From a virus, in IMG/VR virus record IMGVR_UViG_3300021446_000092, positions 1-51,500 of that record: DNA of 51,500 bases. The stretch is one strand, 5' to 3'. Below the pieces are notes generated by a model. It was not told the DNA's origin, searched no databases, and worked only from the letters and a program-made list of their open reading frames with translations. Below, in pieces: positions 3,708 to 13,665 of the stretch (its first letter is position 1; each line of letters begins with the position of its first letter). The translations under genes and the position numbers were made by a program.

Positions 3708-4643
3708 CTACTCTACGATGCGGATTTCTGCGGCGTCCCGCTCCCCGAGTAGCTCGGCCACCATCCGGCTGTCCCGCGTCTCGCTCCCGCCGTCCTCGCC
3801 GTCCGCGCTGGAGCCGCCAGCCGCGGCGTCCGTGTCCTCGGCTTCCTCCGGGTCGAAGTCCGAATCGTCCGGGGCCTCGTCCGGGTCGAAGTGCCCGCGC
3901 TCCAGATCCTCCATAATCTCCTCGATGAGGTCACGGAGGAAGTCCGGCAGGTCCGGCGTCTCCGGGATGACCTCACGGAGACGGTCCACGACTTCGTGGG
4001 CCATCTCCTCGCGGCGGTCCGGGTCCTGGGTCTGCTTGACTTGCTCCGCCAGCGGGGCAATGTCCATCAGCGCCTCGCGGACTTCCGGGTCGGCGTCGTT
4101 GATGCCCTTGACTCTGCCCGCGAACGCGAGTTGAGTGAATCCCTCGACGGCCTGCTTCCGCGGCGGGATCTCACTCATCGGCGGGCGCATCTCATCGTCC
4201 TCCATGAGGCTCTGAATCGCCCAGTTGTGGACCTTCTTGAGTCCGCGGTACTTCCGGTGCCGGTTGTAGTCGATGTAGTTGTCCTCCAGAATGTTCATCG
4301 CCATTCCGGCGAGCTTCGCGTAGCCGTCGTCGTGTTGCTCCATGAACTCCCGCTTGCCCTCGATTTTGGAGTCGTTGTGGTGCTGAACCTCGTGGGAAAG
4401 CGTGTCCACGAGGAGCCGGAGCGCGTGCGCGCCGGTCGCGTCGTGGTACTTCCACGGCGCGTTCACGTCGAGGTAGACCGCGCGGGTCCCGTCCGGATCC
4501 GTATTGGCGTGGGCCGTCTCATCCGTCCAGCGGACTTCGATGGGGCCGTCGTCGCCGTCGTAGTAGTTCTGCGCGAGGTTCGTCAGGAGCCGCTTCAGGG
4601 CCTTGCTCTGTTCCAGCGCGTCGTCGGGTTTGGTATCGCTCAT
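3708..4643 (-). CDS. HExxH zinc metallopeptidase-like protein
   Basis: 311 aa with motif SHEVQHH and an acidic C-terminus. The ATG directly follows a cassette. Its neighbour is a vWA protein, resembling split DUF2201-type peptidase+vWA proteins. Confidence 0.85.
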   Translation of the reverse strand: MSDTKPDDALEQSKALKRLLTNLAQNYYDGDDGPIEVRWTDETAHANTDPDGTRAVYLDVNAPWKYHDATGAHALRLLVDTLSHEVQHHNDSKIEGKREFMEQHDDGYAKLAGMAMNILEDNYIDYNRHRKYRGLKKVHNWAIQSLMEDDEMRPPMSEIPPRKQAVEGFTQLAFAGRVKGINDADPEVREALMDIAPLAEQVKQTQDPDRREEMAHEVVDRLREVIPETPDLPDFLRDLIEEIMEDLERGHFDPDEAPDDSDFDPEEAEDTDAAAGGSSADGEDGGSETRDSRMVAELLGERDAAEIRIVE

Positions 4644-4715: not shown

Positions 4716-4830
4716 CAAGCGGTGTCTATAGAGGCTTTGCGGGCCGTTTGCGGCGGATGAGCTGATTATCTTTTCTGATAACGCCGCGGGAGTGGGACAG
4801 GATTAGCCCACCCAGAGTGGCCCGATGTCC

Positions 4831-7520: not shown

Positions 7521-7896
7521 AACCCAACCGACGGCGGACGAACAGACCGACGACAACTTCACCCCCGGCGATTTCGCGGAGGACAGCGAGGAGTCCGGGA
7601 CGATGGTCGTGATAGCGGACGCGGGCCGGGAAGCGCAAGACCACCTCGTGGTCGCCGCGGATGAGACGGTGGCTGAACTGAACCCGGACTACCCGGCGGA
7701 CGACAACGTGCTGTTCTGCGCCTACCGGAACGCGCTGGACTCCACGTTCGGTGAGTCGTGGCGGGAGTGGACGGCCGCGTTCCTCGCGTTCCAAGTCGGA
7801 GACCAAGGCGTACCCGTGTACTCGTTCCCTGAGAGCCGGCTGGCGGCGAAGGCGGACGAGTACACCGCGGACGACGGAGGTGAGGGAGATGCGTGA
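7510..7896 (+). CDS. Acidic hypothetical protein (128 aa)
   Basis: Acidic ORF that overlaps its neighbours by a few nt. Confidence 0.75.
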   Translation: MTTETQPTADEQTDDNFTPGDFAEDSEESGTMVVIADAGREAQDHLVVAADETVAELNPDYPADDNVLFCAYRNALDSTFGESWREWTAAFLAFQVGDQGVPVYSFPESRLAAKADEYTADDGGEGDA

Positions 7897-8194
7897 ACAC
7901 GGCCTGAAAGACCTGACGGCGTTCCAGCGGGACGCCCTCGCTGTCGTGGCGAAGGGCGGCGGCCTGTACGGGCTGGCGGTCAAGGAGCGGCTCGGGGAGG
8001 CGCGCGGCGAGGCCATCAACCACGGCCGGCTCTACCCGAACCTCGACTCGCTGGTCCACATGGGGCTGGTGGAAAAGTCGGAGCGGAACGGCCGGACGAA
8101 CGAGTACGCCGTGACGCCAGCGGGCCGGGACGCGGTTTCGGACTACGCTGAGTGGGTAGCTGAGGCGGACCAGGGGGGTGAGGCGGATGAGTAA
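7889..8194 (+). CDS. PadR-family winged-helix transcriptional regulator
   Basis: Internal ATG (MREHGLKDL). LTAFQRDALAVV...GLAVKERL...INHGRLYPNLDSLVHMGLVEKSERNGRTNEYAVTPAG is a typical PadR pattern. Confidence 0.85.
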   Translation: MREHGLKDLTAFQRDALAVVAKGGGLYGLAVKERLGEARGEAINHGRLYPNLDSLVHMGLVEKSERNGRTNEYAVTPAGRDAVSDYAEWVAEADQGGEADE

Positions 8195-9125
8195 CATCGC
8201 GTGGGATAACATCGCGTGGGGGCGTGTCGCCGCGCTGGCGATGATCCCCATCGTGCTGTTCTCCAGCATCGGGCTGGTGTTTGCCTACCACCAGGTCCCT
8301 GAGGGCCACGTCGGCGTGGAGACCGAGTGGGGAGCCGTCACCGGGAACGTCGATGACCCGGGCGCGGAGTGGAAGGTCCCGTTCATGCAGGGGATTCAGG
8401 ACGTGGAGACGCGACCGCGGACGTACACGATGTCGCAAACCACCGGGGAAGGCGACAAATCCCGGGCGGACGCCATCTCGGTCAAGACGGTCAACGGGAC
8501 GACCGTCAAGGTTGACGTGACCATCCGTTACCGGATCAACGACAGCGAGGCGGATGAGTTCGTTGAGGACTGGAACAACGAGCGGCAGATGGAAAAGCGG
8601 CTTATCCGGCCGACCATCCGCTCCGAGCTACGCGACGAAGCGAGCGACATCCAGACGACCGGCGGGAGCGGTATCTACACCCGGCAGGGCCGGGAGGCGC
8701 TGGCGACTACGGCCCGGACCGCGCTGGAGAGCGAGTTTGCGGATGAGCCAATCGTGCTGGAGCAGGTCCAGATCCGGAACATCGACCTTCCGGACCAAAT
8801 CGACGCCACGCTGGACGAAAAGGAACAGGCGAAACAGCAGGTCGAAGTGGAGCAAGAGCGGATCCGGCAGGAGGAAGCCCGCGCAGAGCAGGCACGGGTC
8901 GAGGCCCAGGGTGAAGCGGACGTTATCGCAACCCGCGGCGAGGCCCTGAGCGAGAACCGCATCGTCCTGAAGGCCCGGCAGATAGAGGCGTACGACTCCG
9001 GGACCGTGTTCGTCACCGAAGGCGGACAGGAGATAATCCTTGACGGCTCCGGCGCGGCTGAGGGCAACACGGACGGGAACGAGACGAACAGCACGGTCCC
9101 CGCGTCCCCGGGGGCGGGAGCATGA
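8187..9125 (+). CDS. SPFH/band-7 (prohibitin/stomatin-like) membrane protein
   Basis: N-terminal TM segment, then VPEGHVGVETEWGAV...ISVKTVNGTTVKVDVTIRYRI...IRNIDLPDQI, followed by a charged coiled coil. Confidence 0.9.
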   Translation: MSNIAWDNIAWGRVAALAMIPIVLFSSIGLVFAYHQVPEGHVGVETEWGAVTGNVDDPGAEWKVPFMQGIQDVETRPRTYTMSQTTGEGDKSRADAISVKTVNGTTVKVDVTIRYRINDSEADEFVEDWNNERQMEKRLIRPTIRSELRDEASDIQTTGGSGIYTRQGREALATTARTALESEFADEPIVLEQVQIRNIDLPDQIDATLDEKEQAKQQVEVEQERIRQEEARAEQARVEAQGEADVIATRGEALSENRIVLKARQIEAYDSGTVFVTEGGQEIILDGSGAAEGNTDGNETNSTVPASPGAGA

Positions 9126-9418
9126 CGGACGGGAGCGACGACGACGGCATCTCCCGCCGGAAGCTCCTCGCCGCCAGCGGGACCGCGGTCGGCGTAGCCG
9201 CCCTCGCCGGGTGTACGGCCGGCGACCAAGCGCAGGAGTACGCCGGGACCGTCTCCGAAGCGGCCGGCATAGAGCCGCCGCAACCGCCGCAGGGAACGCC
9301 GGAGAACGAATACTGGCGCTTCGTAGTGGCGTCGATGGAGTACCAGAACCAGCAGGCCCGCGCACAGAGCCAGGGCATCGCGGCGCTGGTCGATAACGAG
9401 GGGCTGACGGAGGGGTGA
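9122..9418 (+). CDS. Tat-signal lipoprotein (98 aa)
   Basis: SRRKLL twin-arginine motif followed by the lipobox LAGC. ATGA-coupled to the SPFH gene. Confidence 0.75.
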   Translation: MTDGSDDDGISRRKLLAASGTAVGVAALAGCTAGDQAQEYAGTVSEAAGIEPPQPPQGTPENEYWRFVVASMEYQNQQARAQSQGIAALVDNEGLTEG

Positions 9419-9606
9419 CTGTGGCGGCGAAAATCGTGTTCATCGCCACCGCGCTCATCATCGCCGTCGGCGGCTCTACGTGGGCGCTCGCCTGGGCCTA
9501 CCGGAAGCACGTCGAGGCGAGCGCGGAGACGAGGAAAGCCCGCTACGAGCGCGACGAAGCGATGGTCGGAGAAGCCGAACGGGAGGTGAAGAAACGGGAG
9601 CGGTAG
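9415..9606 (+). CDS. Small single-pass membrane protein (63 aa)
   Basis: GTG start overlapping the previous stop (GTGA). Hydrophobic N-terminus and charged C-terminus. Confidence 0.6.
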   Translation: MTVAAKIVFIATALIIAVGGSTWALAWAYRKHVEASAETRKARYERDEAMVGEAEREVKKRER

Positions 9607-9618
9607 CCGCGGGGGACT

Positions 9619-9685
9619 CTCCCCCGTCGCCCCAGACTCGCGGAGGGGCCTGATGAGCCGGGTGAGGTCCGGCGAAACGGAGGAC
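9619..9685 (+). ncRNA. Candidate type III hammerhead ribozyme
   Basis: Stem III 9620-9627 / 9677-9684. GUC cleavage triplet 9626-9628. Stem I GCCCC(9629-9633)/GGGGC(9645-9649). CUGAUGA 9650-9656. Stem II GCCGG(9657-9661)/CCGGC(9669-9673). GAAA 9674-9677. Confidence 0.7.
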
Positions 9686-9695
9686 GACACCAACT

Positions 9696-10070
9696 ATGAG
9701 TCACGACACCGAAGACGGAAACGCTGGACGGAGCGATGAACCGAAGCCGGTCCTGTGGGTGAGTCTCACGTCGGCGGGACGGGCGGAGACGACCGCCGCG
9801 GACCTAACGGAAGCTGGCGACCGCGTGAAGGAAGCGGTCGGGGACGACTACGAGGTAATCGTGGCGGACGACCGTGTCCGCCTCGCCACGGTTGAGGACC
9901 TGCAAGACCTACGCGACTCCATCGACGCCCTGCTCCCGTCGGATCTGGAGACGGAGGCGGAGCGGCAGGAACGCCAGCGGGAGGAAATGGGTCTGTCCGC
10001 GGGCGACGTTATGGGCGGGAACACCGACGCGCCGGGCGTGCAGGAGCCGGAGGGCGAGGATGAAGCGTGA
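9696..10070 (+). CDS. Acidic hypothetical protein (124 aa)
   Basis: Acidic ORF, the first gene after the ribozyme-like spacer. Confidence 0.8.
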   Translation: MSHDTEDGNAGRSDEPKPVLWVSLTSAGRAETTAADLTEAGDRVKEAVGDDYEVIVADDRVRLATVEDLQDLRDSIDALLPSDLETEAERQERQREEMGLSAGDVMGGNTDAPGVQEPEGEDEA

Positions 10071-10399
10071 AGCACTACGACGACTACCGCTCGCTTGCGA
10101 TGGTCGTTGGCGCGCTCCAGAGCGGGGGGTTCGTCCGGACGGACGTGAAGCCCGACGACGACGGCCCGCCGTGGATGGGGCGGCCGCTATTCCTCCACGG
10201 CGGGGACGTATGGTGCGACGAGTGCCGGGAGCTAATCGACCCCGACGACTGGTACGGGGAGGCGTGGCCGAACGTCCTCGCGCGGCAAAAGCTCAAGTAC
10301 AGCGGGACGTGGTGCGGCGACTGCTTCGCGGAGGTAGACCCGGGCCGGTCCGCGGAGGGGACCGATGAGCCGGAGCGACCCGGACGGACCTTCGACTGA
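10067..10399 (+). CDS. Cys-rich hypothetical protein (110 aa)
   Basis: ATGA-coupled. WCDECRE...WCGDCF suggests zinc binding. Confidence 0.75.
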   Translation: MKHYDDYRSLAMVVGALQSGGFVRTDVKPDDDGPPWMGRPLFLHGGDVWCDECRELIDPDDWYGEAWPNVLARQKLKYSGTWCGDCFAEVDPGRSAEGTDEPERPGRTFD

Positions 10400-11494: not shown

Positions 11495-11673
11495 GCAGAT
11501 GGGTGCTTTCCCGCCGGGCGAACGCGATGGCGACCGGGTGGCTCATCTACTCCGCCCTCGCCTACGGGTGGGCGCGCGACCACGTCCCGCTCCCGCTCCT
11601 GCTTACGGCGGGCGTCGTCCTGTTCACCGCGGAGACGCACCGCTACATGACGGGAGGGTACGACGGTGAGTAG
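11491..11673 (+). CDS. Small membrane protein (60 aa)
   Basis: MSRWVLSRRANAMATGWLIYSALAYGW...LLLTAGVVLF; two hydrophobic segments. Confidence 0.55.
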   Translation: MSRWVLSRRANAMATGWLIYSALAYGWARDHVPLPLLLTAGVVLFTAETHRYMTGGYDGE

Positions 11674-11699
11674 CCGCGTGCTGGCCGTGGGGCAGAGCG

Positions 11700-12149
11700 G
11701 TGACTGACCTGTCGGACTTCAACGGCGGGATCCAGCCGCCGGACCCGCCGCAGATCAAGATGGTCAAGAAGGTCCCGCTGGCGTTCGGCGAGAACCGTAA
11801 GACAGCGGGCTGGATAGGCCCCGTTCCGGAGCGGAAGGCGCTCGGCTTCGTCACAAAGCGGGACTCGCAGGAACACCGGATCCGCGCGCTCAACGCCTAC
11901 AGCATCTCGGAGAAGGTGTTAAAGCGGCTGACCGCACAGGACGTGCAGGTCGTTCTCATCCACGAGAAGGACCGCGACCGCGTGCTGGAGTACACGCTTC
12001 AGCAGTTCCGGGACGCCGATAACGTCCCGGAAAAGTACCTGATGCGGCCGGACGACCCGCAACGCTTCGTCCGGCTCCGCGGGGCCGATAGCTGGCATCA
12101 CGCCGATACGCTCTACATCCCGCGCGACGAACCTATCGAGTATGGGTGA
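11700..12149 (+). CDS. Hypothetical protein (149 aa)
   Basis: GTG start with coding-like composition. Confidence 0.8.
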   Translation: MTDLSDFNGGIQPPDPPQIKMVKKVPLAFGENRKTAGWIGPVPERKALGFVTKRDSQEHRIRALNAYSISEKVLKRLTAQDVQVVLIHEKDRDRVLEYTLQQFRDADNVPEKYLMRPDDPQRFVRLRGADSWHHADTLYIPRDEPIEYG

Positions 12150-12807
12150 GACTGTCATCGAGGCGTTTGAGCGGCTGGCGCGCGAAATCCTCGACGCGCC
12201 GGAGGTGACGCCGGATCTCTCCCCGGTGAGTACCACCGTCTACGTCAAACACCACGGCGGTAAGGGGAAGCTCCGCGAACTGGAGAAGGCCCACTTGGAC
12301 GCGGAGATGGTCGGCTTCCCCGCGTCGGACAAGCTCATCGACATAGAGGTGTCGGAGGTAGAGTACGTCATCTCGGGCGACCCGCACGACCCGTACGAAC
12401 CGCCGCCATCTACGCCGGCCAGCGGCGGCTCAGGCGGCTCCGGCGGATCCGGGGGCGTTCCGTCCGACCCGCCCGCGGAGGACAGCGAGGAGCGCGAGAC
12501 GGCCGCGGAGGGTCCGGCACGCCCAGACCCGACGCTCTATGAGCGGTGGGAGCAGGCCGACGACAAGATTCACGTCGCCGCCGGATCATGGCTTGGAGAC
12601 GCAGACCACCGGCAGGACTACGAGGACGGGACCGAGAAGTACGTCCACGCCGAGGGGCCGGAGCCGACCGGGCCGCCTGACGGCCGGATAGATGACGGGT
12701 GGGAGTCCCTCACCGACTTTGCGGAGGACTCAAAGACCTGCCCCGCCTGCTCAGAAGCGATAGCCGACTACTACAACCTGCCGGAATGGAAGGTAAAAAA
12801 TGGGTAA
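12142..12807 (+). CDS. Hypothetical protein with GS-rich linker and C-terminal CPxC family motif
   Basis: C-terminus GWESLTDFAEDSKTCPACSEAIADYYNLPEW matches the motif of the paralogues at 374-1930. Confidence 0.85.
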   Translation: MGETVIEAFERLAREILDAPEVTPDLSPVSTTVYVKHHGGKGKLRELEKAHLDAEMVGFPASDKLIDIEVSEVEYVISGDPHDPYEPPPSTPASGGSGGSGGSGGVPSDPPAEDSEERETAAEGPARPDPTLYERWEQADDKIHVAAGSWLGDADHRQDYEDGTEKYVHAEGPEPTGPPDGRIDDGWESLTDFAEDSKTCPACSEAIADYYNLPEWKVKNG

Positions 12808-13204
12808 AGGAAGCGACGGCGAACGAGAGGTGGTGAATCGACTGGAAGATGCGATGGGCTGGCGCGCGCTCCGCGCGCCGGGGAGCGGCGGCGGGACTGA
12901 CCGGGAGCGGCCGGACGTGCTGGCCGGGCGGGACGGCCGCGTAGTGATGTTTGAAGTCAAGACGAGTAGCGGGAAGCCGGTGTACGTCGGGAAGGATGAG
13001 GCGGAGGCGCTCATCCAGTACGCCGCGGACTTCGGCGCGGCGGCGTACATCGCCGTCCGCTGGAAGTCCGTGAACATCCGGGATACTACGGTCTACGTTG
13101 CGAACCCGTTCGATATGCACGAGACAGAGCAGAACTACCGGGCGAAGTACGAGGACTGTACGGAGAAGAACGCCTGGACGACGCTTGCGGATCTCTGTGG
13201 CTAA
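12800..13204 (+). CDS. hjc: Archaeal Holliday-junction resolvase (Hjc-like)
   Basis: GSDGEREVVNRLED.GW.ALRAPGSGGGT...PDVLAGR....VMFEVKTSS......V...EAEALIQYAADFGAAAYIAVRW follows the Hjc/PD-(D/E)xK pattern. Confidence 0.85.
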   Translation: MGKGSDGEREVVNRLEDAMGWRALRAPGSGGGTDRERPDVLAGRDGRVVMFEVKTSSGKPVYVGKDEAEALIQYAADFGAAAYIAVRWKSVNIRDTTVYVANPFDMHETEQNYRAKYEDCTEKNAWTTLADLCG

Positions 13205-13665
13205 GGACCGTCGCCCCCCTCGTCGCTGTCAGCCTCATCCTCCCCCTCAGTTCCGTCGCTTAGAGATCCGGGATCTTCCGGTTCTGGACGCCCGCCGTCC
13301 GGGAAGTGGTCTGTCCCACGGAGGAACCCGCGGCCAGACGGCGGCGGTACGTCATCGACTCCGGAGGTATCCAGTTCGTCGTCTACGGAGTGAATGAGGA
13401 GATTGATTTTCTTGTCCACGGAGTAGAGTTGCTCATGCGTCTGTTCTGCGTGGGTATCGACCTTGTTCTCTAACTGGTCGAACCGTTGCTCCGTTTCAGA
13501 CAGAAACCCGTCGTAGGTGTCGTCGCCGTCCTTCCCGAGCAGGCGGAGTTTGAGCGCCCGCGCTACGTCGTAGTTCCACTTTATCAGCGCGCCGTAGGCC
13601 CCGAGTACGGCGATAAGCACAGTCACCGACAGCGCCAGCGCCTCCCACGTCTGGACTTCTACCAT
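13201..13665 (-). CDS. N-terminally membrane-anchored coiled-coil protein (154 aa)
   Basis: One TM segment (LALSVTVLIAVLGAYGALI), then a coiled-coil region and an acidic tail. Its stop overlaps the Hjc stop convergently. Confidence 0.8.
   Translation of the reverse strand: MVEVQTWEALALSVTVLIAVLGAYGALIKWNYDVARALKLRLLGKDGDDTYDGFLSETEQRFDQLENKVDTHAEQTHEQLYSVDKKINLLIHSVDDELDTSGVDDVPPPSGRGFLRGTDHFPDGGRPEPEDPGSLSDGTEGEDEADSDEGGDGP

Follow-up and report, generated by a model that had tools for sequence, protein, structure and literature searches.

A conserved type III hammerhead motif, predicted to self-cleave, in an operon spacer of an HHTV-2-like haloarchaeal virus

Introduction

Does a short gap in a tightly packed viral operon hold a self-cleaving ribozyme? 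The question is raised by a spacer in a 51,500-nt stretch of viral DNA (IMG/VR record IMGVR_UViG_3300021446_000092, positions 1–51,500; hereafter the window), for which a preliminary description had proposed a complete hammerhead ribozyme of type III topology. On comparative sequence grounds, we conclude that positions 9620–9684 of the plus strand are likely to form a genuine type III hammerhead self-cleaving ribozyme within a polycistronic viral transcript. Below we describe the element and its relatives, weigh the covariation that carries this conclusion, and set the element against competing explanations and known hammerheads.

Results

The spacer and its operon

The window encodes a portal protein, a large terminase, a tail tube protein and a prohead protease, and one of its tail proteins is 76% identical to gp51 of HHTV-2. 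A PadR gene and an SPFH/Band 7 gene lie ahead of the spacer, as they do in HHTV-2. The virion genes, the gp51 match and this synteny identify the window, a JGI metagenome contig, as an uncultured HHTV-2-like (Saparoviridae) haloarchaeal tailed virus, in agreement with the haloarchaeal context and the upstream PadR–SPFH module given in the preliminary description. From about position 7750 as far as the Hjc resolvase gene, the plus-strand genes abut or overlap one another, and no sizeable gap other than the spacer was seen in this run. It contains no A/T-rich TATA-like or promoter-like stretch and no U-tract between 9607 and 9695. The features of the locus are as follows.

7751–8194, plus strand: PadR gene, upstream of the spacer
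8178–9125, plus strand: SPFH/Band 7 gene, upstream of the spacer
9415–9606, plus strand: last gene upstream, encoding a 63-aa protein, homolog of HHTV-2 gene 79
9607–9695, plus strand: spacer of 89 nt, flanked by the stop (9606) and the ATG (9696)
9610–9626, plus strand: upstream hairpin CGGGGGA-cuc-UCCCCCG, with GGGGGA at 9611–9616 and UCCCCC at 9620–9625
9620–9627, plus strand: 5′ strand of stem III, UCCCCCGU (positions 16.8–16.1), partner of 9677–9684
9626–9628, plus strand: cleavage triplet GUC
9628, plus strand: C17 of the GUC triplet, the predicted cleavage-site nucleotide
9629–9649, plus strand: stem I hairpin, 5 bp, with GCCCC (9629–9633), an 11-nt loop 1 (9634–9644) and GGGGC (9645–9649)
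9637–9641, plus strand: CUCGC, candidate pseudoknot strand of loop 1, partner of 9662–9666
9650–9656, plus strand: catalytic core C3 U4 G5 A6 U7 G8 A9 (CUGAUGA)
9657–9673, plus strand: stem II hairpin, 5 bp, with GCCGG (9657–9661), loop 2 and CCGGC (9669–9673); its first pair is G10.1–C11.1
9662–9668, plus strand: loop 2, GUGAGGU, 7 nt, with the candidate pseudoknot strand GUGAG at 9662–9666
9674–9676, plus strand: catalytic core G12 A13 A14
9677 and 9627, plus strand: A15.1 paired with U16.1
9677–9684, plus strand: 3′ strand of stem III, ACGGAGGA (positions 15.1–15.8), partner of 9620–9627
9696–10070, plus strand: first gene downstream, 124 aa, homolog of HHTV-2 gene 76, with no Pfam family

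The sequence of 9607–9695 and every coordinate of the motif agree base for base with the preliminary description, including the closed 5-bp hairpins of stems I and II and a stem III in which seven of eight positions are paired, with one A–C mismatch (9620–9627/9677–9684). The helices run in the order III–I–core–II–core–III, which is the type III topology, as aligned by Rfam over model positions 1–54. Hammerhead scission between C9628 and G9629 is expected to leave a 2′,3′-cyclic phosphate on 9628 and a 5′-OH on 9629. The 3′ strand of stem III also holds a Shine–Dalgarno-like GGAGG (9679–9683), 12 nt ahead of the ATG at 9696. A type II hammerhead built on the GAAAC at 9591 was considered and rejected; it has no stem II, and the GAAAC consists of Arg/Glu codons of the upstream ORF.

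Chance and the Rfam model

We searched the window with a relaxed type III descriptor in which every stem has at least 4 bp. The real window matched once, at 9620–9684, and only one of 2000 dinucleotide-preserving shuffles of the window gave a match. The motif is not due to chance. It is the only hammerhead core of the window in which stem II closes, and a covariance model of the family described below likewise recovers a single copy.

The Rfam model Hammerhead_3 (RF00008) aligned end to end at 9621–9683 (model positions 1–54) with 35.2 bits and an E-value of 2.4e-6, the latter referring to a 201-nt scan of 9550–9750. The score is below the gathering score of 48.5 bits, which is a curation cut-off and not a biological property, and the shortfall stems mainly from loop 1, which exceeds that of the model by 8 nt; for the copies in HHTV-2 and HVTV-1 the model gives 38.1 and 35.7 bits. 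The element is therefore filed under the ribozyme class and not as a member of the Rfam full set. Whole-window Rfam scans returned no match, either at gathering thresholds or by E-value; in the E-value scan the hammerhead was lost at the speed filters. The type III model bears out the earlier assignment along its full length in the narrow scan, at a score short of the curated family.

Related copies in two virus families

Nine distinct copies of the element were compiled: those of the window, HHTV-2 and HVTV-1, and those on six metagenome contigs, namely L101 and the Logan/ENA contigs L206, L207, L208, L209 and L213 (L210 carries the same element as L209). BLAST placed the HHTV-2 copy in synteny with that of the window, between genes 79 and 78, and also returned a 55-nt match to HVTV-1 and HVTV-2 (Druskaviridae, 102 kb), covering the element only and lying between genes 25 and 26. 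Over these ~55 nt, HVTV-1 and the window are 89% identical, and the genes that flank the HVTV-1 and L101 copies are unrelated to those flanking the copy of the window. A pattern scan of metagenomes yielded at least one family member, L101, and the five Logan/ENA copies were reached via homologs of the upstream 63-aa protein. In two further relatives, L211 and L212, the genes overlap and there is no spacer, indicating that the element is dispensable for the operon.

Other searches added little to the family. Pattern scans of IMG/VR anchored in turn on stem II, on loop 1, on loop 2 or on its pseudoknot strand gave HHTV-2 and HVTV-1 as the only family members, and the many further matches of one of these scans were rejected as chance matches in coding sequence. 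A scan of GTDB genomes returned one unrelated actinobacterial match and zero haloarchaeal proviruses, and an SPFH-based locus search of IMG/VR returned HHTV-2 only. The GenBank records of HHTV-2 and HVTV-1 carry no feature covering the element; its predicted cleavage sites fall between 47310 and 47309 on the minus strand of the former (KC292024) and between 10991 and 10992 of the latter (KC117377).

In every copy the element lies in the sense orientation relative to its flanking genes, and its end lies 9–25 nt from the following start codon (12 nt in the window). The first gene after it belongs to five unrelated families. A GGAGG is located within the stem III strand in seven of the nine copies, while L209 and L213 have theirs further downstream; GGAGG at −10 to −17 also precedes other genes in the operon. 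Occlusion of the Shine–Dalgarno sequence by stem III was rejected as a general feature, the stems of L209 and L213 having no GGAGG.

Covariation and core invariance

Alignment of the nine sequences revealed that C3–A9, apart from N7, and G12–A14 are invariant in all copies, as are the U16.1–A15.1 and G10.1–C11.1 pairs. At N7 the copies have U, C or G, and at position 17 eight of them have C and one has U, never G, so that the triplet reads GUC in eight and GUU in one. In the proposed helices 90.9% of the alignment cells are paired, compared with 37–53% when the partners are slid by 1–3 columns, and seven pairs have changed on both sides (two in stem I, one in stem II, two in stem III and two in the pseudoknot described below). 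These compensatory changes fall in different lineages and helices. The paired fraction, the numbers of double changes and the covariation score of the alignment were each equalled by none of 500 shuffles, a count that is not a probability because the nine sequences are related.

Stem I is 100% paired, and its second and third pairs switch from C–G to G–C in five of the nine sequences. Stem II is likewise 100% paired, with a compensatory G–C to C–G change in L101 and an inserted U–A pair in L213. Stem III is 76% paired and has two pairs with compensatory changes. The G–U pairs of stem III and of the pseudoknot are compatible with the plus (mRNA) strand only. The comparison establishes the motif, its conservation and covariation in all three stems and the pseudoknot, and the type III fold proposed from the single sequence is now backed by a comparison of nine.

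A probable pseudoknot between loops 1 and 2

Loop 1 (A[G/U]ACUCGCGGA) and loop 2 (GUGAGGU) hardly vary among the copies, and a 5-bp pseudoknot can form between CUCGC at 9637–9641 and GUGAG at 9662–9666. Over the nine sequences this helix is 95.6% paired. In L207 the strands CUCGC/GUGAG are replaced by CCUGC/GUAGG, changing two adjacent pairs from U–A to C–G and from C–G to U–A; L207 is the one sequence that supplies the covariation of the pseudoknot. Mismatches occur in L209, in which the terminal pair is lost, and in L213, which has an internal U–U. The duplex is worth only about −4 kcal/mol, and we estimate a chance of ~15% for a random 5-bp match between such loops, so that support for the pseudoknot comes from the double compensation in L207 together with the invariance of the loops.

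Pseudoknots between stems I and II are a documented docking mode, needed for fast cleavage at low Mg2+, and ~40% of hammerheads have been reported to carry a Watson–Crick loop–loop pseudoknot (PMC3088659). The preliminary description had seen no obvious loop I/II contacts and had pictured a minimal hammerhead made active by high salt. The 5-bp pseudoknot, the near-invariant loops and the two compensations in L207 argue against that picture, which is probably wrong, and suggest that the element is probably a full-length hammerhead with a tertiary contact.

Predicted folding and the upstream hairpin

The folding energy of the spacer is unremarkable (z = −0.24), and the minimum-free-energy fold of the element differs from the hammerhead fold, which when enforced lies 6–9 kcal/mol above the minimum in the four copies tested. 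In the minimum-free-energy folds of HHTV-2 and HVTV-1 a dominant long helix pairs GUCGGGCC with GGUCCGGC. We rejected this helix because the compensatory changes of stems I and II break it: both the stem I variant of the window and the stem II variant of L101 disrupt it, each keeping its own stem. In the ensemble of the window the pairing probability of stem III is ~0, because the upstream hairpin, with a predicted energy of −14.7 kcal/mol and a pairing probability of 0.99, occupies its 5′ strand. A hammerhead fold disfavoured in this way could make the predicted cleavage slow or conditional.

The hairpin shares 9620–9626 with the 5′ strand of stem III and hence competes with stem III before cleavage. 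The preliminary description had read this as a toggle between an inactive and an active fold, a reading that refines the ribozyme explanation and is no alternative to it: the hairpin at 9610–9626 would keep the 5′ strand of stem III and hold the ribozyme mostly off, cleavage being confined to conditions in which stem III is favoured by folding kinetics, by salt or Mg2+, or by a factor. We regard such regulation as possible but doubtful. It is consistent with the predicted dominance of the hairpin over stem III, with the order of transcription (the hairpin emerges ~50 nt ahead of the 3′ strand of stem III) and with the capacity of most of the eight other copies to form a comparable hairpin, including L209, in which an upstream segment CAGGU faces the stem III strand ACCUG; salt-responsive control of saltern hammerheads has also been proposed by Perreault et al. 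(PMC3088659). Against it, the upstream complementarity is not better than that of shuffled G-rich upstream sequence (p 0.04–0.64, 38/1000 to 640/1000), the hairpin energies are not lower than those of shuffled sequences, and the hairpin is absent from HVTV-1. A role after cleavage explains the structure equally well: it would then lie at the 3′ terminus of the upstream RNA, with the cyclic phosphate 2 nt away, and drive product release. Of the toggle, then, the existence and strength of the hairpin stand, whereas its conservation does not exceed what composition provides.

Discussion

Proposed mechanism

In the preferred reading, the element acts as a self-cleaving ribozyme in the plus-strand transcript. 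Stems I and II would form capped hairpins lying side by side through the 5-bp loop 1–loop 2 pseudoknot, and the flanking mRNA would supply both strands of stem III. From established hammerhead chemistry, an internal transesterification in the folded core would sever the RNA between C9628 and G9629, giving an upstream RNA with a 2′,3′-cyclic phosphate end and a downstream RNA with a 5′-OH start. To judge from the gene context, the cut would split the message for PadR, SPFH and the small protein from the block that extends from the ATG at 9696 to the Hjc resolvase gene, and the separated halves could then differ in stability and translation. The upstream hairpin may cap the 5′ product and help to free the GGAGG-bearing 3′ strand of stem III for ribosomes. 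The most likely function, as suggested by this context and by its match to the settings of the prophage and HF1/HF2 hammerheads discussed below, is processing of the polycistronic transcript at C9628/G9629, which would uncouple the PadR–SPFH module.

Competing explanations

The RNA could instead be conserved in the shape of a hammerhead with its catalysis unused in vivo, as a leader for protein binding or translation control or as a decaying relic. The thermodynamically disfavoured fold, the constant position 9–25 nt upstream of a start codon and the overlap with GGAGG in seven of nine copies would suit such a leader, but the catalytic nucleotides are invariant in all nine copies while the stems and N7 drift, and H17 is never G. 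This pattern fits selection for catalysis and not for shape alone, and we consider a non-catalytic RNA distinctly unlikely.

Less probable still, to a degree that we give it very little weight, is an element that works at the DNA level, whether by marking a boundary of recombination or mobility or by binding a protein. It would explain why ~55 nt are 89% identical in unrelated viruses with a variable following gene: the HVTV-1 match does not extend beyond the element, the gene after the copies comes from five unrelated families, and the HVTV-1 element plus gene 26 resembles an insertion relative to HCTV-5, HCTV-1 and HCTV-16. A DNA site, however, would not keep the hammerhead core and H17; the substitutions compensate RNA helices, the pseudoknot included, the G–U pairs work in plus-strand RNA only, and the placement on the sense strand of the flanking genes is constant.

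Chance or another RNA class is scarcely credible: the shuffle result and the eight other conserved copies speak against chance; the spacer has neither the U-tract of a terminator nor the TATA-like A/T-rich stretch of a promoter; and an archaeal C/D box sRNA, hinted at by sub-threshold matches to Rfam sR28 (9646–9701, 15.3 bits, E 0.051; HCTV-16, 20.4 bits) and by the likeness of UGAUGA to a C box, is rejected by the missing downstream D box CUGA, by the sR28 score of 15.3 bits against a gathering score of 39, and by the change of UGAUGA to UGACGA or UGAGGA in six of nine copies, which breaks a C box and is allowed at hammerhead N7.

A second hammerhead-like element in Druskaviridae

HVTV-1 contains a second hammerhead-like element, right after gene 26 (11663–11743; 3176–3256 of L002), with counterparts in the syntenic spacer of HCTV-5 (13512–13600), HCTV-16 (12803–12869) and HCTV-1. 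In each of them stems I, II and III pair perfectly, the core reads CUGANGA and GAAA, the site is GUC, and loops 1 and 2 carry complementary C-runs and G-runs. All have an insertion between A9 and G10.1. It is a single U in HCTV-1 and HCTV-16; in HVTV-1 and HCTV-5 it comprises 17 nt, made up of a GNRA-looped hairpin of 4 bp and a further 5 nt, and the stem of the insert hairpin covaries between these two viruses. Rfam scans did not detect these Druskaviridae elements. De la Peña and Flores are said to have found in 2001 that one extra nucleotide at A9/G10.1 is tolerated in a viroid hammerhead; we know of no hairpin insertion at this place. If the element with the 17-nt insert is active, it would represent a core architecture without a known prior description.

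In two virus families the same 60-nt ribozyme plus leader precedes five or more unrelated genes, and gene 26 of HVTV-1 is bracketed by two ribozyme-type elements. It is conceivable, if unlikely, that the hammerhead modules of haloarchaeal tailed viruses are portable boundaries of gene cassettes. Speculatively, double cleavage would free a gene-sized RNA with 5′-OH and 2′,3′-cyclic-phosphate ends; since such ends are substrates of archaeal RtcB ligase, circular or separately regulated mRNA could form.

Significance

The analysis defines a well-supported family of hammerheads with a consensus core that is present in cultivable haloviruses, unannotated in GenBank and missed at Rfam thresholds. 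HHTV-2 grows on Haloarcula hispanica and HVTV-1 on Haloarcula vallismortis, and the combination of a canonical ribozyme, a fixed operon position and a growable virus would allow a direct test of the role of hammerheads in operons. Where Rfam thresholds are applied, hammerheads of this sort may go under-counted in high-GC archaeal viruses. Knowledge of the ribozyme class itself is unchanged by the element.

Comparison with known hammerheads

The novelty implied by the preliminary description was overstated. Hammerheads in haloviruses HF1 and HF2 and in saltern viral metagenomes, one of them with a typical consensus, were published in 2011 (PMC3088659), and the GenBank record of HF2 annotates one. 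A 2019 review (PMC6466107) refers to Senčilo et al. 2013 (RNA Biol 10:803), the genome paper of HHTV-2 and HVTV-1, on hammerhead motifs in haloarchaeal tailed viruses. Our full-text literature searches returned no description of the present element; the 2013 paper is outside their coverage and may mention it.

The closest architecture is that of the RF00008 type III hammerheads with a pseudoknot between stems I and II (PMC3088659), which share the same core, the GUC, the A15.1–U16.1 and G10.1–C11.1 pairs, capped stems I and II, an open stem III and a Watson–Crick loop–loop contact. Their pseudoknots usually go with a 2-bp difference, whereas stems I and II are both 5 bp here. An IMG/VR contig (L030) carries the same architecture with a different pseudoknot sequence.

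The closest setting is that of HHphage, the hammerhead of HF1 and HF2, whose host is likewise a haloarchaeal tailed virus. It is annotated as type II at 10292–10359 of the HF2 record (AF222060) and fills a short spacer in an early polycistronic unit, starting 2 nt after the annotated end of the preceding ORF and ending 11 nt before the next ATG in that record; the distance to the helicase ATG is given as 11–13 nt for HF1/HF2, compared with 12 nt before the ATG at 9696 here. In HF1 and HF2 the mapped 5′ end of a transcript lies no more than 3 nt from the cleavage site, and transcript processing was proposed (PMC3088659). HHphage has an atypical insertion next to C3, in contrast to the type III topology and strictly consensus core of the present element, and the two have no sequence similarity beyond the core. 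A saltern variant related to HHphage needed very high Mg2+ (PMC3088659). A BLAST search with the published HHmeta sequence missed the HF1/HF2 ribozyme, whose position is taken from the HF2 annotation.

Prophage hammerheads (PMC3088659) are intergenic in phage operons and their adjacent gene is not constant, as is the case here. The stem II sequence GCCGG/CCGGC also occurs in about 50 phage contigs, mostly in type I hammerheads with a capped stem III, unlike the type III element of the window. A further likeness to the prophage setting is that gene 26 of HVTV-1 is flanked by two hammerhead-type elements; the window differs in having a single copy. Type III hammerheads of viroid and satellite RNAs have the same topology and core, and they process multimeric intermediates of circular-RNA replication; the element here occurs once, in the mRNA of a dsDNA virus. 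It is thus a further example of an already known kind, with activity predicted from its sequence.

A second hammerhead-like element in Druskaviridae

Separate from the ribozyme of the window, a second type III hammerhead-like element was recognised by sequence in four viruses and is specific to Druskaviridae. It is followed in each by a conserved mini-ORF.

Druskaviridae hammerhead-like element and adjoining mini-ORF region, by extracted locus
HVTV-1: element, L002 3176–3256 (KC117377 11663–11743); mini-ORF region, L002 3257–3300
HCTV-5: element, L202 1464–1552 (genome 13512–13600); mini-ORF region, L202 about 1553–1600
HCTV-16: element, L203 1516–1582 (genome 12803–12869); mini-ORF region, L203 about 1583–1625
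HCTV-1: element, L204 1455–1521 (genome 13021–13087); mini-ORF region, L204 about 1522–1560

All four copies have a core that agrees with the consensus, a GUC site and perfect stems, and C-runs and G-runs in loop 1 and loop 2 are complementary to each other. The junction between A9 and G10.1 holds an insertion, which is a single U in HCTV-1 and HCTV-16 and 17 nt in HVTV-1 and HCTV-5, where it consists of a covarying GNRA hairpin and a linker. The Rfam models gave no match to this element. The mini-ORF, located immediately 3′ of the element, has seven codons (versions MKDATEV*, MKENTEV* and MKPKTEV*). It ends in GAGGUGUGA, a nearly perfect Shine-Dalgarno sequence situated 3–6 nt upstream of where the following gene is annotated to begin.

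Genes adjoining the hammerheads

In HVTV-1, gene 26 is flanked on both sides by hammerhead-type elements, with the window-type ribozyme on one side and the Druskaviridae element on the other (L002 2493–3259, genes 25–27). Comparison of this interval with L202, L203 and L204 revealed that gene 26 and the window-type ribozyme are both missing from HCTV-5, HCTV-16 and HCTV-1, so that in HVTV-1 the two together look like an inserted cassette. The 196-aa product of gene 26 had no Pfam match.

The gene slot directly 3′ of the window-type ribozyme is a variable region, as judged from the window (9696 onward), locus L001 (2778–3544) and the Logan/ENA contigs L206, L207, L208, L209 and L213. The first gene encodes a gene-78-like membrane protein in HHTV-2, L206, L207 and L208, a CxxC protein in L209 and L213, and in the window directly the gene-76-like protein; the L209 slot additionally holds a gene with a Halo_toxin domain (PF26442).

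RtcB ligates 2′,3′-cyclic-phosphate and 5′-OH ends, exactly those that hammerheads produce. An SPFH gene lies just upstream of the ribozyme in both the window and HHTV-2. A hammerhead is likewise present in viruses of the HF1 group, and their genomes code for both a prohibitin/SPFH protein and an RtcB RNA ligase (L215 18629–19504; genome comparison PMC7230728).

Comparison with other hammerheads

The best BLAST match of the published saltern metagenome hammerhead HHmeta was not in HF1 or HF2; it was a weak one (76%) to an unannotated stretch of Salisaeta icosahedral phage 1 (H32, JN880423 10219–10273), Salisaeta being a halophilic bacterium. A phage contig of 56% GC (L030, IMG/VR 3300037504_001072) carries a type III hammerhead on the minus strand (locus positions ~2348–2417) with a 6-bp loop 1–loop 2 pseudoknot, GGCCAA/UUGGCC. 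Its stem II, GCCGG/CCGGC, is identical to that of the window and is also found in ~50 other viral contigs, there mostly in type I hammerheads. Among the matches listed, type III hammerheads were present in other metagenome contigs with a GC content of 0.69–0.70.

Type III hammerheads in high-GC contigs
L156, around 4139–4204 and 4729–4794 (two copies, spacing ~590 nt)
L131, 467–533
L172, 1037–1102

As in the window, these hammerheads have GGAGG in the 3′ strand of stem III and an ATG shortly after.
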